Assembly (NCBI GenBank): GCA_965230295.1
Contig: OZ246001.1
Coordinates: 736,001 to 800,000 of the forward strand
Direction: 5' to 3'
Source of the DNA: Marinicella sp.
GTDB taxonomy: Bacteria; Pseudomonadota; Gammaproteobacteria; Xanthomonadales; Marinicellaceae
Length of the DNA stretch: 64,000 nucleotides
In this document: one piece after another, positions 2,628 through 28,395 of the stretch
Position numbering within the stretch: the first letter of the stretch is position 1
Layout of the letters: every line of letters starts with the position of its first letter
Notes under the pieces: model-generated
The model's input: the letters and a program-made list of their open reading frames with translations, nothing else
Told to the model about the DNA's origin: nothing
Databases searched by the model: none
Position numbers and translations under genes: made by a program

Positions 2628-4694
2628 TCAAACTTTTGCCAACTCTTGAGCATTTCTTTGCCAACGTTGGATGATCTGTTCACAAGCGGCGGGGTTTGAT
2701 TTCAACAAATCTGCCGCCATCCCTTTGGCTTGTTGAAATAATGCAGCATCTTGTTCAGGATTGGAAAACCGAAATTCCATGCTGCCTTTTTGTCGGGTGC
2801 CCAGGATTTCACCAGGTCCACGTAACTTGAGGTCTTGCCGAGCAATTTTAAACCCGTCGTTGGTTTCACGCATGGTGGTCAGGCGCACCTGGGCATTCTC
2901 GGTCAGTGGTGCCTGATACATCAACACACAATGGCTTTGGCGGTTGCCCCGGCCTACCCGGCCGCGCAGTTGATGCAATTGTGACAAACCCAATCGTTCG
3001 GCATTTTCAATCACCATCAAACTGGCATTGGGCACGTCCACACCGACTTCGATAACCGTGGTAGCAACCAACAACTGAATCTGATTGGCCTTGAATCGAT
3101 CCATCACGGCTTGTTTCTCGTCACTTTTCAAACGGCCATGGATCAGCCCCACTGACAGATCAGGGAACCAATCCTTGAGCTCCTCAAACGTATCCTGAGC
3201 GGCCTTGGCGCGCATGTGTTCTGATTCTTCGATCAACGTACATACCCAATAGGCCTGTTCTCCCTGACCGCAGGCGTGGCGGATCCGTTCTGCCAATTGT
3301 TGCATTTTTTGGTTATCCAGCAACACAGTGTTGATGACTTTGCGGTTGGGTGGCAGTTCATCAATCACTGAAATGTCGAGGTTGGCATAGGCAATTTGAG
3401 CCAGTGTCCTGGGGATTGGCGTGGCCGTCATGATCAGATTATGCGGCATCAATGCATTGGTGTTATCCACACTGGCCTGACCCTTTTGTTTCAACATCAA
3501 CCTTTGGTGAACCCCGAAACGGTGCTGCTCATCAATGATGACCAGCGCCAAGTCACGATAAACCACATCGGCTTGAAATAAGGCATGGGTCCCAATGATC
3601 ACATCTGCATCTGCAGCGATGGCTGCAAGTACTTCAGTTCGGGCCTGACCTTTGATTTTGCCAGACAAAAAGACCACCTTTTTATCAGGAAAATAATCCA
3701 CCAGGGTCAGCAGGTGTTGCTCTGCCAAGATTTCTGTCGGTGCCATCATCACCGCTTGCTTGCCATGGACCAAGGCAGCTTGCATGGCCAGGGCTGCCAC
3801 CACGGTTTTACCACTGCCCACATCGCCTTGGACCAAACGTTGCATGGGATGGTTCCTCCCCAGGTCTTGGTGAATTTCAGCCACCACCCGATTTTGTGCA
3901 CTGGTCAACTCAAAAGGTAAACGAGTCAACAACTGTTGGGTTTGTTCTGCTGATACCGCCAGCCAAGGCGCATTGAGTTGTTCAATCGCAGTCCGCGCTT
4001 GGTGCATGGCCAAGAAATGCGCCAAAATTTCTTCAATCTTCAACCGCTGTTGGGCGGGATGAGTTTGATTCAACAGTTGCAGCACGTCTGCATCAGGCGG
4101 CGGCTGATGCACAAAGGACAACGCATCGGTCAAGATCGGCATCTGTTGTTCTGCCAACCAATCTGCCGGTAACAATTCAACCAGATCAAACTGTCCTGAA
4201 GCCATTAGACAGACCGCTTGGGCGGCAGCCTTCTGTAATAACTTTTGCGAGACCCCTTCGGATTTCGGATAAATCGGGGTTAAGGATCGAGCCAATGCCG
4301 GCTGTTTGTCACCCAGGCTGAATTCCGGGTGAATGATTTCCATGCCATACATGCCATGGCGAATTTCACCATAGGCACGTATTCGAGTACCGGCGCGCAT
4401 TTTAATTTTTTGTGAATAATAGAAATTGAAAAACTTCAACTGCATCACCGCAGTGCCGTCATCAATTTCACACACTAAAATGGGCCTGCGCCCCTGCGTG
4501 ACATAGGATTTGACGATTTCCCCTTCGACCTGGGCATATTGGAACCCCACCAACGCACCAATGTCAGTGATCCTGGTTTTGTCTTCATAACGCAACGGCA
4601 GGTGGAACAACAAATCCATCACATCGGACAAACCCAAGGTCAACAGTTTTTCTGCAGTGGTTTTCCCGATGCCTTTAAGTTCTGTTAATTCCAT
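2628..4694 (-). CDS. recG: ATP-dependent DNA helicase RecG
   Basis: QGDVGSGKT, DEQH, TATPIPRTL, QLRGRVGRG, DLKLRGPGE. Confidence 0.98.
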   Translation of the reverse strand: MELTELKGIGKTTAEKLLTLGLSDVMDLLFHLPLRYEDKTRITDIGALVGFQYAQVEGEIVKSYVTQGRRPILVCEIDDGTAVMQLKFFNFYYSQKIKMRAGTRIRAYGEIRHGMYGMEIIHPEFSLGDKQPALARSLTPIYPKSEGVSQKLLQKAAAQAVCLMASGQFDLVELLPADWLAEQQMPILTDALSFVHQPPPDADVLQLLNQTHPAQQRLKIEEILAHFLAMHQARTAIEQLNAPWLAVSAEQTQQLLTRLPFELTSAQNRVVAEIHQDLGRNHPMQRLVQGDVGSGKTVVAALAMQAALVHGKQAVMMAPTEILAEQHLLTLVDYFPDKKVVFLSGKIKGQARTEVLAAIAADADVIIGTHALFQADVVYRDLALVIIDEQHRFGVHQRLMLKQKGQASVDNTNALMPHNLIMTATPIPRTLAQIAYANLDISVIDELPPNRKVINTVLLDNQKMQQLAERIRHACGQGEQAYWVCTLIEESEHMRAKAAQDTFEELKDWFPDLSVGLIHGRLKSDEKQAVMDRFKANQIQLLVATTVIEVGVDVPNASLMVIENAERLGLSQLHQLRGRVGRGNRQSHCVLMYQAPLTENAQVRLTTMRETNDGFKIARQDLKLRGPGEILGTRQKGSMEFRFSNPEQDAALFQQAKGMAADLLKSNPAACEQIIQRWQRNAQELAKV

Positions 4695-22292: not shown

Positions 22293-23059
22293 TGCAAATC
22301 AACCTGATCGGCAGTGGCTGGTTGGCTAAACCACTGGCCCAACACTTACTTACCGTTGGACATCGGGTATGGGTCACCACCACACAAACAGAAAAAATCG
22401 CAGAATTGGAGGCAGTTAACCTGCGTGTTCTGCGATATTCGTTGGGTGATCAACTGTCAGACCCCAGTCTATTATTCGATACGGATGTGCTGATCATTGC
22501 CATCACCAGTAAAGACCTGGCAGCTTTCAATGTGCTGATGGATCAAATCAACGATTCAGCCTGTAAACACATCGTATTCATCAGCTCCACTTCAGTTTAC
22601 CTTAATGATGGCCAAAGCCATGATGAATCCAGTGAGGCTTTGAACCATGACAACCCATTACTGCAAATCGAAAGGTTGATCCAGACTCATCCCTCAACCA
22701 CCATCATTCGCATGGCCGGGCTGGTTGGGCCAGGCAGACACCCTGGTCGATTCTTCCAACACGGCAAGGTGCTGAAAAACCCAAACGCAGCTGTTAACTT
22801 AATTCACCTGGATGATTGCATCGGTGTCATAGAATCAGTAATTGAACACAATGCATGGAATGAAATCATCAATGCTTGTGCCAACACCCATCCTGATAAA
22901 ATCACCTTCTACACAGCCATGGCCAATCAAATGGGTTTACCGGCGCCCATTTGTGAAGAGGATACCGATGGCAGCTTTAAAATCATTGCGAACAACAAAC
23001 TGGAAAACACTTTGAAGTATGCATTGATTCATGCTGACGTCATGAAAATGAAATTCTAA
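22292..23059 (+). CDS. NAD(P)-dependent epimerase/dehydratase-like atypical SDR (YeeZ-like)
   Basis: IGSGWLA, FISSTSVY, R.AGLVGPGRHP, VNLIH.DD. Confidence 0.85.
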   Translation: MQINLIGSGWLAKPLAQHLLTVGHRVWVTTTQTEKIAELEAVNLRVLRYSLGDQLSDPSLLFDTDVLIIAITSKDLAAFNVLMDQINDSACKHIVFISSTSVYLNDGQSHDESSEALNHDNPLLQIERLIQTHPSTTIIRMAGLVGPGRHPGRFFQHGKVLKNPNAAVNLIHLDDCIGVIESVIEHNAWNEIINACANTHPDKITFYTAMANQMGLPAPICEEDTDGSFKIIANNKLENTLKYALIHADVMKMKF

Positions 23060-23095
23060 AAAAAACCATCAAACTGAATGTTTGATGGTTTTTTT
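23058..23095. terminator. Bidirectional intrinsic terminator
   Basis: AAAAAAACCATCAAAC-TGAAT-GTTTGATGGTTTTTTT. Confidence 0.85.
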
Positions 23096-23117
23096 GGATG
23101 CAGCTGTTTAATGTGTG

Positions 23118-23324
23118 TTATTCAGCAGGTTCCTCTTTGTTGGCATTGCCAATATTGAATAACAACAAACCCAAACCTATCTCAATATAAGATGAGTATT
23201 TCCACAATAAATCAGGCAATGTAACACCTAATCTTCCCCATAAATCAAAGCCTGCATAACTTCCAATCAAGTCTACAGCGCCCATCACGATCAACAAAAT
23301 ACCAATAATTTTTAATGCTTTCAT
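23118..23324 (-). CDS. Small two-helix membrane protein
   Basis: 68 aa with two hydrophobic segments; AGGA-type RBS upstream; ends near the terminator. Confidence 0.7.
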   Translation of the reverse strand: MKALKIIGILLIVMGAVDLIGSYAGFDLWGRLGVTLPDLLWKYSSYIEIGLGLLLFNIGNANKEEPAE

Positions 23325-23469
23325 AGCGTTCTCTGTCCTTTATTTGATGTTGAGTGGAGGTGTTAGAATAACCCCCTGCAATTTCAAAAGGTACCCCTTG
23401 TACCCACTGAAGCCAATTGATTATAAAGCAATTTTCTGAACAACGGTTTAAAAAATCTATTTAACCATT

Positions 23470-23790
23470 GTCAAGACTCATCACACGACAAACCGTGTGG
23501 AAATACTCTAGAACCAAAATTGGAGAACTGTCGGACAGTTTGGCCGGCGCAGGTAATGAAAGCATGGTGGTTTACCTGAAAGGTAATAAGACTTGCTTGA
23601 ATACCGTAGCGCGTGCACTCGGTTGGCGAAGCCTTGCTGGTCGCTTCCGCATCCTGCTCATGCGACAGACCTACATCCCTGTAGGCCAGCCAGAGAGTGC
23701 AAGCCCGAAGTAGCAAGCCATGTCCGACGAGGCCGCTTTCACTTTTGTCAGGAATAGACATCCGAAGTGAGCAAACGCGAACTTGAGGTC
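23470..23790 (+). ncRNA. Large structured non-coding element of unknown family
   Basis: Many nested stems; GC-richer than the flanks; shares the CATGGTGG..GAAGCCTTG core with the repeats at 25.7-26.1 kb. Confidence 0.5.
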
Positions 23791-23880
23791 AAATAAGAGT
23801 TAGAAGATGCTGGTTTTTTTGTGCAACAAAAAAGAAGGCATTTCTAACCATTCTCCAGAATGAAGTCCCAAGGACATTCA

Positions 23881-25167
23881 TTAATATACGATGGCTTTGA
23901 TCTGTGCTTCCAACTCTGCCACCAACTCAACATGGTGTTGTCCAGTACCTGGACCAGCAAAACCAGAATGTACATTGACTACTTGGTGGTTGCGATCTAA
24001 GAATATACTGGTGGGGTAAGCCACCACCCGATCCAGAAAACCCAACACCTTGGCCGCTTCTTTTTTGTCATTGATTCCGGCACGCAGTAAGGGGTATTCG
24101 ATACCAAAACGCTTTTTGAATTCACCCATCTGTTTTTTATCTCGAGCCACATCTTCGGTAAACTCAAAAGCCAGACCCACAATTTCTAAACCATCTTTGT
24201 GGTACTTGTTATAAAAATCAACCAACACAGGCGCCTCGTCATTACAATTTGGACACCAGGTCCCAAATAAGTTGATCAAGACAGGTTTGCCTTGAAAGCG
24301 TTCATCAGTTAATTGAACCAGTTGGCCATTGAGGTCTTCAAAGGCAAAAGAAACGGAGTTATCTTCAGTGGTGATTTCAACCATATCCCAACTGTCTGGT
24401 AACACCGCATAAGCATCCTCATCCAATTGTGCTGTCCAACTGGCATAATAGGTGTCCCTGGACCAAAACCCACCTTTCAATTGCCCGTCATTCAATGTGG
24501 CATCAAACAAAAAAGCATGGGCACCATCAAAAGCCGATAACTTCAAAGAACCATCTATGGCATGGCCTGCTAAGAATCGATAGTCTCCAGTAGGGGTTAA
24601 AAACGTACCATTCACTTTCTGACCATTTTGTTGAAATTCACCCACACCAACCGATGTTCCATCTTCGTCAATAAATTCAGCTTGCCAAACGCCTTCTACT
24701 ACAGTCTCAACACTGTTATCTGTCGCCACTTCAAACCGATATGGAAATCCTTTGGTTGCCGAGAAGGGTAACTTTGATATTTTTCCAGGCGCTGTTTTTG
24801 ACCATTCACCAGCCATTTGTTGACCAGACACATCTATCTTGGCCTTGATTCGGGCATCATACCAACTGAACTGGATTTCGATGTCTTGACCATTCATGAC
24901 CACTGCAGATGTATCCACCCGTTCAGGACCATTGAGTATTTTAGCGGTATAGCCATCTTGACCTTTGGCCAGTTGAATACCAAAAGGCAACTCACCGCCC
25001 GGAGATTGCAGCACACCACGCCATAAACCAGCGATGCTGGGCTGCATAGGGACAGCGGCCAATTGAGACTCTTGTTCTTTAGGCTGTGACTGGGTCACTG
25101 GTTGATTTTCTTTGGAATCACAGGCCAGTAACATGACAAACATTATCAGTGGGATTAATTTTTTCAT
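23881..25167 (-). CDS. TlpA-family thiol-disulfide oxidoreductase lipoprotein with N-terminal beta domains
   Basis: Lipobox LLAC; WCPNC; YPTSIFLDR. Confidence 0.85.
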   Translation of the reverse strand: MKKLIPLIMFVMLLACDSKENQPVTQSQPKEQESQLAAVPMQPSIAGLWRGVLQSPGGELPFGIQLAKGQDGYTAKILNGPERVDTSAVVMNGQDIEIQFSWYDARIKAKIDVSGQQMAGEWSKTAPGKISKLPFSATKGFPYRFEVATDNSVETVVEGVWQAEFIDEDGTSVGVGEFQQNGQKVNGTFLTPTGDYRFLAGHAIDGSLKLSAFDGAHAFLFDATLNDGQLKGGFWSRDTYYASWTAQLDEDAYAVLPDSWDMVEITTEDNSVSFAFEDLNGQLVQLTDERFQGKPVLINLFGTWCPNCNDEAPVLVDFYNKYHKDGLEIVGLAFEFTEDVARDKKQMGEFKKRFGIEYPLLRAGINDKKEAAKVLGFLDRVVAYPTSIFLDRNHQVVNVHSGFAGPGTGQHHVELVAELEAQIKAIVY

Positions 25168-25304
25168 AAGAATAGGAGTCAAATACGATGAATTCATTAC
25201 ATTATAAGTATTTTATTTGGGCTAAAAGCTTTTTCACTGGCAAAATAATTAAAATATATAAAGCCACAGTGTGTTGGTATAACCCGGATTAAGAACTGTT
25301 TAAT

Positions 25305-25706
25305 ATGACCATGACCAAGCATCAAAGACCATATGACAAGCTAAAATGTCGGCTCGTTTTGGTTATGATGTCTTTGAGCCTGTTGAGTTCCTGCAAGCAT
25401 GATCGGTATATAGTGGTGGTCATCAACAACACCGATCAAACCATAAATCATGTCACCATGTGGTATGACGACATGCCTTTCAAATATGAAACCATCAAAT
25501 CCAAAACAAAAGAAACCGGGATTTTTGAACAACACCGTTTAACTGATCAAATTAAACTGACCTGGACCGATCAAAACAACATCGAACACTCACAGACGTT
25601 TGACACATTTAAATTCGTTCCTAAAAACTATGACAATGGACGGATACACCTCAAATATCACTCTGACAACCAATTCACCATGTCTTTTGACAACACCGCC
25701 TTCTAA
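25305..25706 (+). CDS. Hypothetical lipoprotein
   Basis: Hydrophobic stretch with LSSC lipobox; beta-rich mature region. Confidence 0.6.
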   Translation: MTMTKHQRPYDKLKCRLVLVMMSLSLLSSCKHDRYIVVVINNTDQTINHVTMWYDDMPFKYETIKSKTKETGIFEQHRLTDQIKLTWTDQNNIEHSQTFDTFKFVPKNYDNGRIHLKYHSDNQFTMSFDNTAF

Positions 25707-25719
25707 AATAAACAACCAA

Positions 25720-26135
25720 CTCTTGGAAAGCCACTAAGTAGATAACCCGTTGAGACGGGTAGGCAAATCATATAACCATGGCGGTTTTGCGTAGCAAAGA
25801 AGCCTTGATTATATGATTGATAAACCGTGAGCTTCCGCAAGTCAGAAGCTCACTCATCTAAGATTACCCCATTCATGGTGGTTTTTGCCAACAACAGAAA
25901 CCTTGATTGGGTTACAAATAATGTGAGCAGTTGGCGAGCTCCTGCGAGTCAGAAGCTCACTCATCTAAGACCACCCCATTCATGGTGGTTTTTGCCAAAG
26001 GCAAAAGAAGCCTTGAATGGGTTACAAATAATGTGAGCCGTTGGCGAGCTCCTGCGAGTCAGAAGCTCACTCATCTAAGACCACCCCATTCATGGTGGTT
26101 TTTGCCAAAGGCAAAAGAAGCCTTGAATGGGTTAC
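25720..26135 (+). repeat. Array of structured repeats: two near-identical 110-bp units plus two diverged partial copies
   Basis: 25916-26025 and 26026-26135 differ at one base; diverged copies at about 25766-25818 and 25827-25915. Confidence 0.92.
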
Positions 26136-28243
26136 TTTAACTGGGTCCAAAGGTGCGTATAAGCCAGCGCCAGTCGTTCGGCCAATTGTTCATTGGTGCT
26201 TGAACCACCGTGCCCACCTTCGGTATTTTCATAGTACCAAATCGGGTAACCGTAGGACATCATCTTGGCAGCCATTTTTCTGGCATGTCCAGGATGCACA
26301 CGATCATCACGGGTTGATGTATAAAAGAAGGTTGCTGGATAATCGGTTTCGGGTTTCAAGTTTTGGTAAGGGCTGTATTCCTTGATAAATGCCCATTGTT
26401 CCGGAATGTCTGGGTTGCCATACTCGCCCATCCAACTGGCACCCGCCAACAACTTGTTGTAGCGATACATATCCAATAAAGGGACACCGCATATCACAGC
26501 ACCGTAAAGGTCTGGTCTTCTGGTCATGGTGGCACCAACCAACAGCCCGCCGTTAGAACGACCTTCTATGCCCAAATGCTGAGGAGAAGTGATTTTTCGT
26601 TTGATCAAGTCTTCTGCCACTGCTTCAAAATCCTCATAGGATTTGGTGCGGTTTTCTAACAAGGCGGCTTTGTGCCATTTAGGGCCATAAGCACCACCAC
26701 CACGGATATTGGCTGATACAAACACACCGCCTCTGTCCAGCCACAACTTGCCATATGCACCTTCCAAGGCTTCATACGACCCCGAATACGAAGGTGTTAA
26801 CGAATTCCTGAATCCGCCATAAGAAAAGATGTGTGTGGGGTTACTGCCATCAAACTTTGTGCCCTGATTCATCACGATGAAATAAGGTACAAATGTGCCA
26901 TCTGCAGAACGAGCAAAAAATTGTTCTACTTGATAAGGAGATGGATCAAAACTTTGGGCTTGTGACTTAACCGCTTTGGGCTGTAGCGTTTTCCCGTTTA
27001 CGTGATACAGCGTGGGTGGTGTAATGAATGATTCGTATTCAGCAAAGAAGCTGCCGCTGCTGTCATCCACTGCAGTGATACCAATGGCCCCATGATCAGG
27101 AAATTTCACCACTTCAACGTCCCAGCCTTGATCATCTGGTTTATAGACATAAACTTTACTGACCACATCAGACAACATGGTAACGATGATGCTGTCATCT
27201 GCAGTACTGATGCGTTCTATGTTTTCATTGGGTCTTGGGTTTAAAAATACCGACCAATCAGATTTTTCAACCAAAGATTTGCGCCCAGTCAGCACATCAG
27301 GATTGATCATCAACACCATCCCTTCACTGAGAAACTGACCTTGGAATTGCCAGTCCTCTTTCAAGGAAACAATCATTTTCCCTTGGAAAACGCCGCTGAC
27401 AACAGCGGACTGTGGTAAATCAAAGGGCAGTGCTTCGCCATCAATCCATTGGTAGTATTGGCTGGTCCAAAACGAAGTTCCATCAACCAGAAAGTCTTTG
27501 GCATCATCCCCCGTTCCTGTGCGGTAAGCAAATACTGATACTGATTTTTTATCCACCTCCATGAGGGTCTTGGCGTCAGCCAAAGGTGTCCCCCTTTGCC
27601 ACAACTTGACGATTCTGGGGTAGCCAGAGTCGGTCATTGAATCAGGACCAAAATCGGTACCCACAAACAAGTGATCTTTGTCTCGCCAACTGACGCGCAT
27701 TTTTGATTTGGGTAAGTTGAAGCCGCCTTTGATGAATTTTTTGGACTTCATATCAAACTCTTGCATCATCACGGCATCGCCACCACCGGGTGAGATTGAA
27801 ACCAAACAACGTCGGTATTTGGGTGCCAAACAATTCATCCCTTTGAACACCCAGTTTCCTTCATGCTTGGCATTGTATTGATCCATATCCAATACCGTTT
27901 GCCATTTCGGTTGGTCCTTTCGATTGAATTCTTTCAATTTGACTCGACGATAGACACCGCGAGGATTCTTGTCATCTTTCCAATAGTTATAGACCCACTC
28001 ACCTCGTTGGCTGACCGAAGGTATGCGTGATTTGTTGTTCAGGGTAGATAAGGCTTGATCGTACAACTCTTGATAAAGCGGGTTGGCCTTGTATTGATCT
28101 GCAGTGCTTTTATTTTGGGCAAACACCCAGTCCATGGATTTTTCAGCATCCACATCCTCTAGCCACATGAATGGATCATGGTCCGCATCTTTGGCTTGTA
28201 TGCTGAAAGAAAGGAAAAGAGCAAATATTAAAGATTTCTTCAT
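26132..28243 (-). CDS. Secreted prolyl oligopeptidase (S9A)
   Basis: Signal peptide, DPFMWLE, YGGF, NIRGGG, GRSNGG, DDRVHP, GGHG. Confidence 0.93.
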   Translation of the reverse strand: MKKSLIFALFLSFSIQAKDADHDPFMWLEDVDAEKSMDWVFAQNKSTADQYKANPLYQELYDQALSTLNNKSRIPSVSQRGEWVYNYWKDDKNPRGVYRRVKLKEFNRKDQPKWQTVLDMDQYNAKHEGNWVFKGMNCLAPKYRRCLVSISPGGGDAVMMQEFDMKSKKFIKGGFNLPKSKMRVSWRDKDHLFVGTDFGPDSMTDSGYPRIVKLWQRGTPLADAKTLMEVDKKSVSVFAYRTGTGDDAKDFLVDGTSFWTSQYYQWIDGEALPFDLPQSAVVSGVFQGKMIVSLKEDWQFQGQFLSEGMVLMINPDVLTGRKSLVEKSDWSVFLNPRPNENIERISTADDSIIVTMLSDVVSKVYVYKPDDQGWDVEVVKFPDHGAIGITAVDDSSGSFFAEYESFITPPTLYHVNGKTLQPKAVKSQAQSFDPSPYQVEQFFARSADGTFVPYFIVMNQGTKFDGSNPTHIFSYGGFRNSLTPSYSGSYEALEGAYGKLWLDRGGVFVSANIRGGGAYGPKWHKAALLENRTKSYEDFEAVAEDLIKRKITSPQHLGIEGRSNGGLLVGATMTRRPDLYGAVICGVPLLDMYRYNKLLAGASWMGEYGNPDIPEQWAFIKEYSPYQNLKPETDYPATFFYTSTRDDRVHPGHARKMAAKMMSYGYPIWYYENTEGGHGGSSTNEQLAERLALAYTHLWTQLK

Positions 28244-28395
28244 CGTTGTTCTCTGCATCAAAAGAACAAAGATATTAACAGTTTCAAACCTTGATTTCAG
28301 CAGCTAAACAACAGAATCAACGATTCATGACTTGTGGCCTATAGATGAACGCTCTTGGGACTTACCTGTCCACCCTAAGCTCACCCAGCCTAACT

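Follow-up and report, generated by a model that had tools for sequence, protein, structure and literature searches.

BOX elements of Streptococcus pneumoniae, which lack a transposase of their own, have the composition boxA-boxB(n)-boxC and number about 100 per genome. ERIC/IRU sequences are imperfect palindromes of 70–130 nt located in transcribed intergenic regions, with variants that carry internal insertions at fixed sites. REP sequences, as described in an excerpt of PMC3733652, are small palindromes of 20–40 bp with an unpaired GTAG or CGTC at one end, and a precedent for hairpin-ended elements with a replication-coupled orientation bias is found in an excerpt of PMC5027513.

The stretch analysed here, referred to as the window, comprises 64,000 nt of a Marinicella sp. 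contig (OZ246001.1). The first-pass annotation had noticed that an element at 23.5 kb and an array at 26 kb share a bipartite core and had taken this for the best candidate for an undescribed system in the window. Both loci proved to be ordinary copies of one undescribed modular, multi-copy, intergenic repeat family (BOX/BIME/REP-like), and the core belongs to one module of this dispersed family, with about 130 hairpins, instead of a locus-specific system. Per-module nhmmer hits (A, 125; C, 90; B, 160) were merged into 117 loci in the 4.0-Mb genome; these loci and the covariance-model matches in relatives are the further copies on which the idea of a family had been made to depend. Among the papers listed by a literature search on Marinicella, none had a title dealing with genome repeats.

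Elements of the family are 76–630 nt long and have common 5′ and 3′ terminal hairpins, between which the number of internal hairpin modules varies from 0 to 4 or more. Paired termini were recognized in 86 elements, and the minimal elements of ~146 nt also have both. Three size classes stand out, at ~146 nt (19 copies at 145–149 nt), 233 nt (7 copies) and 630 nt (7 copies, pairwise identity 93–98%). The gene context, derived from a crude ORF set, placed 106 of the 117 loci between ORFs, with 33 convergent, 50 tandem and 23 divergent pairs against a genome background of 15, 70 and 15%, respectively. The family thus has the BIME/BOX-type architecture, being intergenic and non-coding and made up of a few modules that vary in number and order, with conserved ends on either side. 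In addition, H-hairpin-containing units have been amplified in tandem in situ; H units are co-oriented within elements and arrays, and hits on both strands were obtained in only 1 of the 117 loci.

The likeness to BOX elements is one of architecture: both are intergenic and non-coding, combine conserved terminal with variable internal modules, form long hairpins, reach about 100 copies and have no transposase of their own, but the host phylum differs and the internal hairpins of the present family have an invariant G.A/R.A/U.K block. Moreover, we know of no replichore orientation bias for BOX elements, whereas the Marinicella family has one. Long imperfect palindromes with internal insertions at fixed sites are shared with ERIC/IRU sequences; however, ERIC is a single long palindrome of enterobacteria and vibrios, whereas this family is a string of separate hairpins between non-complementary ends. 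With the BIMEs and REP sequences of enterobacteria, as far as excerpts of PMC3733652 and PMC8266576 describe them, the family has in common high-copy extragenic palindromes arranged in mosaics, imperfect hairpins with conserved mismatches, and enrichment after genes and between convergent genes; for REP sequences, processing in the form of single-stranded DNA is presumed. In contrast to the small REP palindrome, the H hairpins span 45–67 nt and whole elements 76–630 nt, there is no general GTAG or CGTC tag, the repeats do not flank the RAYT gene of this genome and they are abundant where no Y1 gene was found. The co-oriented H units also differ from a REPIN, in which two REPs are inverted around a short spacer. 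The family therefore departs from the GTAG/CGTC-tagged REP class, a described class that the first-pass annotation had named as a possible home for it, in unit size, tag and RAYT link. Finally, subterminal hairpins, the lack of clear inverted terminal repeats and of target duplication, and an orientation correlated with replication direction recall the hairpin-ended derivatives of IS200/IS605 in the excerpt of PMC5027513. Unlike those, the family has no TnpA or TnpB partner that we could find and no conserved tetra- or pentanucleotide at its left end, only a C at position -4, and its better-folding top strand is located on the template of the leading strand, which, if that strand is the active one, runs counter to the IS608 rule.

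Table 1. Repeat features and adjoining genes at the two loci, in window coordinates.
Feature	Coordinates	Strand	Basis and remarks
Composite family copy (5′ terminal hairpin, A-type H hairpin, module B)	23522..23882	+	blastn, alignment, nhmmer
5′ terminal hairpin AACTGTC-G-GACAGTT	23524..23542	+	Fold
H hairpin, A type	23546..23612	+	Covariance model R1, 69.7 bits; alignments; folds
Junction word GTTGGCGAAGCCTTGCT, start of module B	23622..23638	+	Contains the "3′ half" of the first-pass annotation; alignment, genome occurrences
Second, longer H-like hairpin in module B	23799..23848	+	Fold -18.9 kcal/mol, z = -4.6; not called by R1
3′ terminal hairpin GAATGAAGTCCCAAGGACATTC, common 3′ end of the family	23858..23879	+	Fold; 118 fuzzy genomic matches
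TlpA-like thiol:disulfide oxidoreductase gene (AhpC-TSA/Redoxin domain)	23881..25197	-	Pfam; flanking, outside the element
5′ family terminus (GGAAAGCC...) followed by four H hairpins	25725..26131	+	TRF, blastn
H hairpin 1 (C/H1 type)	25760..25824	+	R1, 64.8 bits; fold
Companion hairpin GTGAGCTTC-N9-GAAGCTCAC	25827..25853	+	Fold -13.6 kcal/mol, z = -4.4
H hairpin 2 (array unit; decayed inner stem, GAAACC)	25857..25922	+	R1, 45.1 bits
H hairpin 3 (array unit)	25964..26032	+	R1, 44.4 bits; folds
H hairpin 4 (array unit)	26074..26131	+	R1, 38.8 bits, model span 26074-26142
Prolyl oligopeptidase (S9) gene	26132..28261	-	Pfam; flanking gene

The boundaries of the 23.5-kb element were clear in blastn, where 14–64 other copies covered 23520–23880 and none extended outside that span. 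Its nhmmer locus (759526–759882) was aligned with nine sister loci, and the window copy was found to be without the central C-type hairpin present in sister copies. At its 3′ end it runs into the TlpA-like stop codon (23881–23883). The place of the 5′ terminal hairpin is taken in other subfamilies by AAGCTGC-TGA-GCAGCTT or AGCTGAT-G-ATCAGCT, according to a list of 5′ termini. An exact degenerate pattern for the 3′ terminal hairpin retrieved 17 public stretches, all of them Marinicella or unnamed gammaproteobacterial records. The H-like hairpin of module B has the same 2x2 GG/AA loop (GCUGG-U7GU...ACA6G-AAGGC), its likeness to the core being judged by eye.

The core words AGCATGGTGGTT (23561–23572) and GAAGCCTTGCT (23628–23638) stand where the first-pass annotation had put them, and so do the four array cores at 25777–26125. 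The latter, all on the + strand, match CATGGYGGTT-N(5-35)-GAARCCTTG, for which 100 dinucleotide shuffles gave 0 expected matches, far below the four found. The looser pattern proposed for a genome-wide check returned eight matches, of which five were at the locus examined here and the other three, by eye, had no stem. In contrast, the proposed pairing of the two core halves of the 23.5-kb element over a 57-nt insert is contradicted by the alignment of ten composite copies. There, the partner of CATGGTGGTT (23563–23572) is a degenerate TAAGaCTTG only 15 nt downstream (23585–23592), where sister copies read TAAGCCTTG; the latter stands ~15 nt after the 5′ half in 5/7 copies having the A-type module, one other copy has AACCTTG and the window copy has its A at 23591. 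Expressed as the A-type hairpin core, the 5′ half is GGTGGTTT at 23566–23573 and the 3′ half AATAAGaC at 23585–23592, with a 3′ consensus of AATAAGCC, so that the A at 23591 is copy-specific and other copies have C. The word at 23628, GAAGCCTTG, is the opening word of the next repeat module and not the partner of CATGGTGGTT; only 2 of the 10 aligned copies read GAAGCCTTG here, the rest having GAAGCCTCG, GAAGTCATG, AAAGCTAAG or GAAGTGTCA. Two further words had been reported as shared by both loci. GTTGGCGA is a genuine word of the family, and 31 of the 37 genomic occurrences of the junction motif GGTTGGTGAGC fall within family loci, whereas ACTCATC is shared by chance, with only 3 of its 622 genomic occurrences in family loci and its copy at 23476 outside the repeat.

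In the array, H hairpins 2–4 form a 110-nt tandem array (TRF: 25829–26135, period 110, 2.8 copies, 94% matches), and the companion hairpin carries the GTTGGCGA junction word in units 2–4. The blastn coverage by other copies was 16–38 for 25720–25830 and 1–2, consisting of sister units only, for 25840–26135. The array is without the family 3′ terminus; the 3′ arm of H hairpin 4 adjoins the stop codon of the prolyl-oligopeptidase gene (26132–26134), with which the array ends flush. Orthologous sites were compared between species in which the flanking protein is 53–74% identical (51.9–73.1% by tblastn). The 23.5-kb element is missing from its site in G017, G023 and G003. At the array site, G017 and G003 have no repeat, G023 has a single hairpin, G012 a single unit and G015 an array of another kind, 170 nt long. 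As had been pointed out, the TlpA-like and lipoprotein genes are indeed bracketed by the cores, but this is coincidental: in the relative G017, the TlpA-like gene occupies the same position with spacers of 18 nt and 77 nt and without repeats. Orthologues of the TlpA-like gene were detected in 8/23 other genomes of the genus at E ≤ 1e-30.

The commonest module of the family is the H hairpin of ~65 bases, which is defined by the core of the first-pass annotation and was modelled with 66 positions in covariance model R1. The core (GGYGRTTT..loop..AAKAAGCC) forms a helix in which a GGY-GCC pairing is followed by a purine-rich block of G.A / R.A / U.K mismatches and then by UU/AA pairs. The inner and outer stems around the block are variable, and both covary. 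In a 33-sequence alignment (A1), 83% of cells were paired and compensatory change was present in 14 of the 19 modelled pairs, a level reached by 0/500 shuffles, while slid controls were 26–51% paired; RNAalifold independently gave the same helix. As the members of A1 were picked by a regular expression demanding the core, the letter invariance there is partly by construction. Among 15 cluster representatives with less than 85% identity, the GG/AA block was kept in 14, and the pairs beside it flip (GGC/GCC to GCC/GGC) or extend. The U.G wobble was conserved in 25 of the 33 sequences. The genome contains at least six types of stem, and relatives add others; thus, the suggestion that a conserved internal-loop core recurs in different stem scaffolds holds, and more generally than the two loci could reveal. 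Both strands fold, with the top strand the more stable in five of the six pairs compared. In A1, the GTAG word (CCGTAGCGC) stands after the A, A2 and H3 subtypes alone; none is present in the C, H1 or H2 types, in the array units or in those at 2.4996 Mb. A second motif, consisting of tandem G.A pairs and a bulged A, was seen by eye in the outer stem of the A, H2 and H3 types.

Several known motifs were compared with the core and set aside. The loop is symmetric, 3x3 (2x2 plus the wobble), and has no 3-nt bulge with G.A/A.G, unlike a K-turn; for the sarcin-ricin loop, with which the same symmetry disagrees, the AGUA/GAA pattern is missing. As to integron attC sites, which have R''/R' boxes (RYYYAAC...GTTRRRY) and stand in cassette arrays beside an integrase, GTTGGCG misfits GTTRRRY and the flanking genes are oppositely oriented by eye, and a dif/Xer site was also dropped by eye.

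R1 gave 132 matches in the genome itself, matches in 21 of the 23 other genomes of the genus (0 to 138 copies each) and matches in 17 genomes outside the genus, in four other families, among 151 sampled in the order, but in 0/150 genomes from other families of the class; the underlying E-values are rough. Copy number outside the genus is low, and the other-family matches retain the mismatch block with rewritten stems. The neighbours of the H hairpin in four other-family genomes were unrelated housekeeping genes, with none in common. Core-pattern matches in nine stretches of viral contigs were attributed to chance, none having stem complementarity.

From GC skew, replication starts near 1.72 Mb and ends near 3.86 Mb. 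Relative to these, the top strand has the lagging-strand sequence in 85/117 loci (binomial p = 1e-6). The same direction was found in two other species, with 12/18 and 15/20 loci when the strand was assigned by local skew over ~18.5 kb as a proxy, although the counts from G021 (12 to 6) do not reach significance by themselves. The genome has two H tandem arrays, both in the favoured orientation. With respect to transcription, in tandem gene contexts 28 loci have the same and 22 the opposite orientation. The orientation bias therefore follows the replichore and not transcription.

The best explanation, to which we assign a probability of roughly 0.55 as a whole statement, is a dispersed modular repeat family with DNA-level, replication-coupled dynamics; that there is such a family we hold to be very probable, whereas for the dynamics taken separately, we would put the chances slightly short of even. 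The elements are non-coding and non-autonomous, and would spread or survive via hairpins formed by single-stranded DNA where the replication fork passes. The block of mismatches could be a feature read by a structure-specific enzyme or, alternatively, a determinant of hairpin stability. Where the more stable top-strand hairpin forms on the nascent lagging strand, copies would persist and expand into arrays; where the same hairpin forms on the lagging-strand template, they would be lost.

A trans-acting factor may read the core, as the first-pass annotation had suggested, but none was identified. We consider it unlikely, but worth stating, that the mismatch block closed by Y-G and U-A pairs is the recognition element of an enzyme acting on folded single strands of DNA or possibly RNA. 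Such a recognition element would explain why the block is conserved from family to family of the order although all stems are rewritten, as well as the precise common termini without duplications, the insertion of H hairpins at fixed points within other modules and the replication-linked orientation. If this is true, the enzyme copies or moves whole elements and single hairpin modules without Y1/RAYT, which would be a REP-like mobilisation of a new enzymatic type.

The termini bear on a second explanation, that of a classical MITE-like element mobilised by a DDE transposase acting in trans and now lost or unrecognised, which we also hold to be improbable, at about the level of the enzymatic recognition element. 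Consistent with it are the defined common termini, the length below 700 nt, the discrete size classes with their high identity and the better folding of the top strand. The 5′ end agrees with the reverse-complemented 3′ end at 14/22 positions by eye, a weak inverted similarity in which each end is itself a hairpin. The 3′ flanks are A/T-rich, and 82 of the 117 copies have a C at position -4 on the 5′ side, which hints at a site preference. Against a MITE, no direct repeat that could be a target-site duplication lay beside any of ten aligned long copies, flank profiles contained no matching words, and the search for a protein-coding master copy between paired termini yielded only two pairs, of 1.4 and 4.2 kb, holding ordinary genes. 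Descent alone also explains poorly a core that stays fixed, within the genome and across the order, between two adjoining stems that have both been rewritten. A search for a cognate transposase was negative: TnpB (PF07282) was present in 0/5 genomes tested and IS110 (PF01548) in 0/5 above cut-off. The 0/5 obtained with the IS91 Y2 profile (PF04986) carries no information, since this profile matched no reference genome.

The first-pass annotation had favoured a protein-binding or catalytic RNA module, in which case the H hairpins would act in transcripts as cis or trans RNA elements, e.g., by stabilising 3′ ends, by being processed or by acting as decoys for an RNA-binding protein. In favour of such a module are the strongly covarying stems on either side of an invariant, purine-rich internal loop, the outer-stem motif seen by eye, the U.G wobble and G.A pairs that make the top strand the better folder, and RNA fold z-scores of -3.2 to -4.6. 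Many copies also lie just 3′ of stop codons, with 16/117 3′ termini and 11/117 5′ termini at ≤12 nt. However, orientation tracks replication and is indifferent to transcription: there is no preference relative to the upstream gene, as given by the tandem counts, 23 loci are located between divergent genes, and both genes abutting the window copies would read them antisense. The swing in copy number among species of a single genus (0 to 138) and the exact termini common to dispersed copies likewise speak against an RNA. In Rfam 15, the region 23000–26400 gave no match at gathering score and none credible at E ≤ 10, three other family loci gave at E ≤ 1 only a microRNA model at 20 bits, and the tRNA/tmRNA scan found only two rRNA-spacer tRNAs. 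The three promoter-like and six terminator-like sites in 23000–26400 are near the shuffle expectation, and none lies credibly inside the repeats. An RNA role is accordingly disfavoured, and we regard it as somewhat less probable still than a MITE.

A REP/REPIN family moved by the RAYT (Y1 HUH transposase) of the genome, which would recognise the mismatched hairpin on single-stranded DNA, is in our view quite improbable. The genome has one Y1_Tnp gene of 187 aa (L027, 1300–1863), the hairpins are imperfectly palindromic and their mismatches conserved, a requirement of E. coli TnpA-REP according to an excerpt of PMC8266576, there is neither a target-site duplication nor a clear terminal inverted repeat, and orientation is linked to replication. 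A comparison of coordinates by eye also located several RAYT-type REPs within a few hundred nt of family loci. Nevertheless, the palindrome on either side of the RAYT gene is another one, GTYGACT(TC/GA)AGTCRAC, present in 20 copies by pattern. That palindrome has CGTC on one strand by eye. Furthermore, no Y1_Tnp was detected in two of the three highest-copy genomes, G021 (138 H copies, 99% complete) and G019 (74 copies, 94% complete), while G003, with its three Y1 genes, has 0 H copies; H copy number and Y1/RAYT show no covariation. The length of the H hairpins, the restriction of the GTAG word to some subtypes and the co-orientation of H units, unlike inverted REPIN pairs, point the same way.

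Chance likeness of short words between two unrelated intergenic regions, to which the shared ACTCATC and the joining of two unrelated modules at 23.5 kb might have pointed, has a negligible probability given the shuffle result for the array cores and 132 model matches in the genome against none in the 150 genomes of other families.

The repeat family is unusual in combining BOX-like modularity, a mismatch block conserved across families of the order, hypervariable tandem arrays at orthologous sites and a replichore bias seen in three species without an HUH transposase that tracks the family. It offers a tractable case for how REP-like repeats spread or persist without a cognate transposase, and bears on whether replication-fork hairpin dynamics alone shape repeat orientation. 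In this genome, about 28 kb consists of family repeats (86 paired elements). The repeats create spurious ORFs, such as those of 81 aa and 96 aa inside 23468–23761. They also break short-read assemblies: many of the G021 matches lie at contig ends, and the contigs of two runs stop at the window repeats.

The repeats at 23.5 kb (23522-23882) and 26 kb (25725-26131) belong to a family of modular, intergenic, multi-copy elements with defined termini and a hairpin module conserved in structure; the family forms tandem arrays, and its elements are oriented relative to replication. Iterated nhmmer searches of the window's own genome with three modules gave 125, 90 and 160 hits that merged into 117 loci; the first-pass proposal of a locus-specific system is not supported. 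Pairing of fuzzy 5′ and 3′ terminus matches, some of the former being the palindromic terminal hairpin seen on the opposite strand, delimited 86 elements of 76-630 nt, which include three length classes (Table). Ten aligned long copies shared exact ends and had no flanking direct repeat, and the inverted similarity between element ends was weak (14 of 22 positions by eye). Solitary 74-nt units were rejected as a separate form, since both termini are present and they are minimal elements. The genes enclosed by two long terminus pairs (1.4 and 4.2 kb) are ordinary ones, which leaves no evident coding master copy. A C occupies position -4 in the flank upstream of the 5′ terminus in 82 of 117 copies, with positions -3 to -1 variable, and may reflect a cleavage or target preference; the window copies (starting at 23522 and 25725) lack it. 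The consensus after the 3′ hairpin is C-T-T-W-W-T, with no matching duplication.

Features in the window and building blocks of the repeat family
Feature	Window position	Strand	Description
Hairpin proper of the 23.5-kb copy	23546-23612		
Module A			5′ terminal hairpin and one long hairpin
Module C			Second hairpin
Module B			Several hairpins and 3′ terminal hairpin
Window H hairpins in R1			Five matches: 69.7, 64.8, 45.1, 44.4, 38.8 bits
630-nt class			7 copies, pairwise identity 93-98%
233-nt class			7 copies, pairwise identity 90-97%
145-149-nt class (~146 nt)			19 copies, pairwise identity 67-99%
Complete rRNA operon	51484-57033	-	
16S rRNA	55489-57033	-	
tRNA-Ala, tRNA-Ile	rRNA operon spacer	-	
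23S rRNA	51780-54648	-	
5S rRNA	51484-51598	-	

The commonest internal module, the H hairpin, was analyzed in an alignment of 33 hairpins taken from the window, from elsewhere in the same genome and from two relatives. All form one helix, comprising from the outside in an outer stem, a U.U mismatch, GGY/GCC pairs, G.A, R.A and U.K mismatches, UU/AA pairs, a variable inner stem and a variable loop. This structure paired 83% of cells, compared with 26-51% in slid controls; both sides changed in 14 of 19 pairs, and none of 500 shuffles reached the observed pairing and covariation values. The same helix was returned by RNAalifold unaided. The 33 sequences were chosen by a regular expression requiring the core letters, so the core invariance is partly by construction; the expression required neither the U-A pairs beside the block nor the stems. 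In a profile search at a looser threshold, the GG/AA block was kept in 14 of 15 representatives below 85% identity, among which the neighbouring pairs flip or extend. Module B contains another long hairpin (23799-23848) with the same 2x2 GG/AA loop, and by eye the outer stem of several subtypes has tandem G.A pairs beside a bulged A. The first-pass suggestion of a conserved internal loop reused in different scaffolds was borne out, and this trait defines the main module. Each strand can fold, and in five of the six pairs compared the top one was the more stable.

When window 23300-26200 was compared with its own genome by blastn, 14-64 other copies covered 23520-23880 and 16-38 covered 25720-25830, and matches to the array remainder (25840-26135) were limited to its own sister units. 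The usual element order in the 10-locus alignment is module A, then C, then B; in the 23.5-kb copy, A is directly joined to B. The words reported by the first-pass annotation are present where it placed them, and it had paired two of them across a 57-nt insert at 23.5 kb. No such insert exists: CATGGTGGTT has its own partner TAAGCCTTG about 15 nt on in five of seven module-carrying copies (the window copy spelling the 3′ half TAAGaCTTG, with the A at 23591), and GAAGCCTTG at 23628 is the opening word of module B, a spelling found in only 2 of 10 copies. Two modules had therefore been joined. The 26-kb locus consists of a family 5′ terminus at 25725, one C-type hairpin and 2.8 copies of a 110-nt unit, which is the family junction segment (GAGC-GTTGGCGAGC..CAGAAG) plus an H hairpin. 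As for the words said to be shared by both loci, GTTGGCGA is common to them because the array unit contains this segment, and 31 of the 37 occurrences of the related GGTTGGTGAGC are inside family loci; ACTCATC is a chance match. In contigs from a second public run (X2), array unit 2 has an extra AGG and an A-to-T change at 25891-25894 and there reads like units 3-4; by eye, these changes would restore the unit 2 inner stem. The array therefore varies between close relatives.

The pattern CATGGYGGTT-N(5-35)-GAARCCTTG matched four times in the window, all on the + strand (25777-26125), with an expected count of 0 in 100 dinucleotide-preserving shuffles. The looser pattern proposed for a genome-wide search, taken literally, is local to the window locus: it matched eight times in the 4,008,074-base genome, five times here and three times elsewhere at sites stemless by eye. 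A covariance model of the H hairpin (R1) found 132 copies in that genome at E<=0.01, the five window hairpins (Table) among them. The core pattern also matched nine times in viral contigs, all stemless and attributable to chance.

R1 matched 21 of 23 other genomes of the genus, with 138, 74, 29 and 16 copies in four of them and 0-9 in the rest, including none in one 98%-complete genome. Across the order, 29 of 151 genomes matched: the window's own, 11 others of the genus and 17 outside it. These 17 span four other families, in one genus of which 8 of 9 genomes matched; no match was found in five genomes from other genera of the window's own family, or in 150 from other families of the class at E<=1e-4. 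This patchy distribution hints at possible horizontal spread. Matches outside the genus keep the mismatch block, with flanking pairs and stems rewritten (e.g. GGC/GCC to UGC/GCG or UGC/GCA). Searched as an exact degenerate pattern, the 3′ terminus occurred in 17 public stretches, all from Marinicella-titled records or gammaproteobacterial MAGs. In one relative, G021, many matches are no more than 150 nt from a contig end; the repeat evidently breaks that assembly, so its copy number there is a lower bound. Some G021 matches form head-to-tail arrays of ~66 nt (e.g. C35:24079-24255).

Of the 23 other genomes of the genus, 8 have an orthologue of the TlpA-like gene (23881-25197, - strand) at E<=1e-30. 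In G017, the upstream oxidoreductase-like, TlpA-like and peptidase genes are spaced by 18 and 77 nt, with no repeat, 68-aa gene or lipoprotein gene at the site. The 23.5-kb element is absent from the orthologous sites in G023 and G003, and in G003 the stops of the lipoprotein and peptidase genes also have nothing between them. The peptidase stop codon is accompanied by a single H hairpin in G023 and by a single unit in G012, and G015 (L119 ~3180-3560, orthologous to 25707-26131) has a different ~170-nt tandem array flush with the stop. These differences indicate that both repeats of the window were inserted or expanded in a lineage-specific manner and that the post-peptidase site is an array hot spot. 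Judged from the same sites, the repeats delimit no mobile TlpA/lipoprotein cassette, and the first-pass proposal that they bracket these genes is not supported. The G015 array combines a GCAGACCTACATCCATGTAGGCC hairpin with an H-like one that has UAC/GUG in place of GGY/GCC and retains G.A, G.A and U.G.

Gene context was assessed with a crude ORF-based set (3392 ORFs, 91% of the genome covered). The family is intergenic at 106 of 117 loci, the remaining 11 falling in short ORFs that are probably spurious or at a start extended too far. Flanking genes are convergent at 33, tandem at 50 and divergent at 23 loci, against a genome background of 15, 70 and 15%, and both termini often adjoin stop codons, with 16 of 117 3′ termini and 11 of 117 5′ termini <=12 nt from one. 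By cumulative GC skew, replication starts near 1.72 Mb and terminates near 3.86 Mb, and the top (G.A-mismatch) strand is the lagging-strand sequence at 85 of 117 loci (binomial p = 1e-6). With the skew of ~18.5 kb adjoining each match as a proxy, and matches picked by score and 19 kb of upstream contig rather than by strand, the same direction was seen in 12 of 18 G021 matches examined and 15 of 20 in G023. A second H array in the window's own genome (L032, G000:C1:2499644-2499970, - strand, other replichore) has three units at ~130-nt spacing and yet another outer-stem scaffold.

The relevant form may be a single-stranded DNA hairpin at the replication fork. A structure-specific enzyme might recognize the mismatch block and terminal hairpins, as Y1 transposases recognize the hairpins of IS200/IS605 and REPs; against this stand the lack of an enzyme and a polarity reverse to that of IS608 if the top strand is active. 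A single Y1 (RAYT-like) gene of 187 aa (L027 1226-1920, G000:C1:1669187-1669881) is present in the genome and is flanked by a separate small palindrome, GTYGACT(TC/GA)AGTCRAC, with 20 copies by pattern. Y1 genes were absent from the high-copy G021 and G019, and three occur in G003, a genome without H. Searches of five genomes for TnpB and IS110 domains found neither; that for IS91 gave no information, its control matching nowhere. A shared neighbour gene was rejected, as H hairpins in four other-family genomes adjoin unrelated housekeeping genes. The palindrome beside the Y1 gene has CGTC at the stem foot on one strand, and several of its copies are found a few hundred nt or less from H-family loci.

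Alternatively, orientation might be filtered after insertion, a stable hairpin leading to deletion on the lagging-strand template and to duplication on the nascent lagging strand. This fits the arrays, because both in the window's own genome have the favoured orientation, and leaves dispersal with exact ends unexplained. An RNA role is disfavoured by an orientation indifferent to transcription (28 tandem contexts with it, 22 against).

Among known repeats, pneumococcal BOX elements and enterobacterial BIMEs are closest by architecture; IS200/IS605-type hairpin-ended elements are closest by end structure and replication bias. On grounds of size, tag, pairing in inverted orientation and a cognate RAYT, the family does not qualify as tagged REPs or REPINs, and it does not qualify as a MITE on grounds of target-site duplication. 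Rfam has no counterpart, with no match in window 23000-26400 at gathering score or E<=10, and no work on Marinicella genome repeats was found among titles. The family represents a new addition to the known interspersed hairpin or mosaic repeats.

Window 23468-23761 holds an 81-aa (+) and a 96-aa (-) ORF, both contained entirely in the repeat element and almost certainly not real genes. Of the 11 family loci scored inside a gene, 10 are overlapped by short ORFs of this sort. Elsewhere, the window contains a complete rRNA operon (Table).
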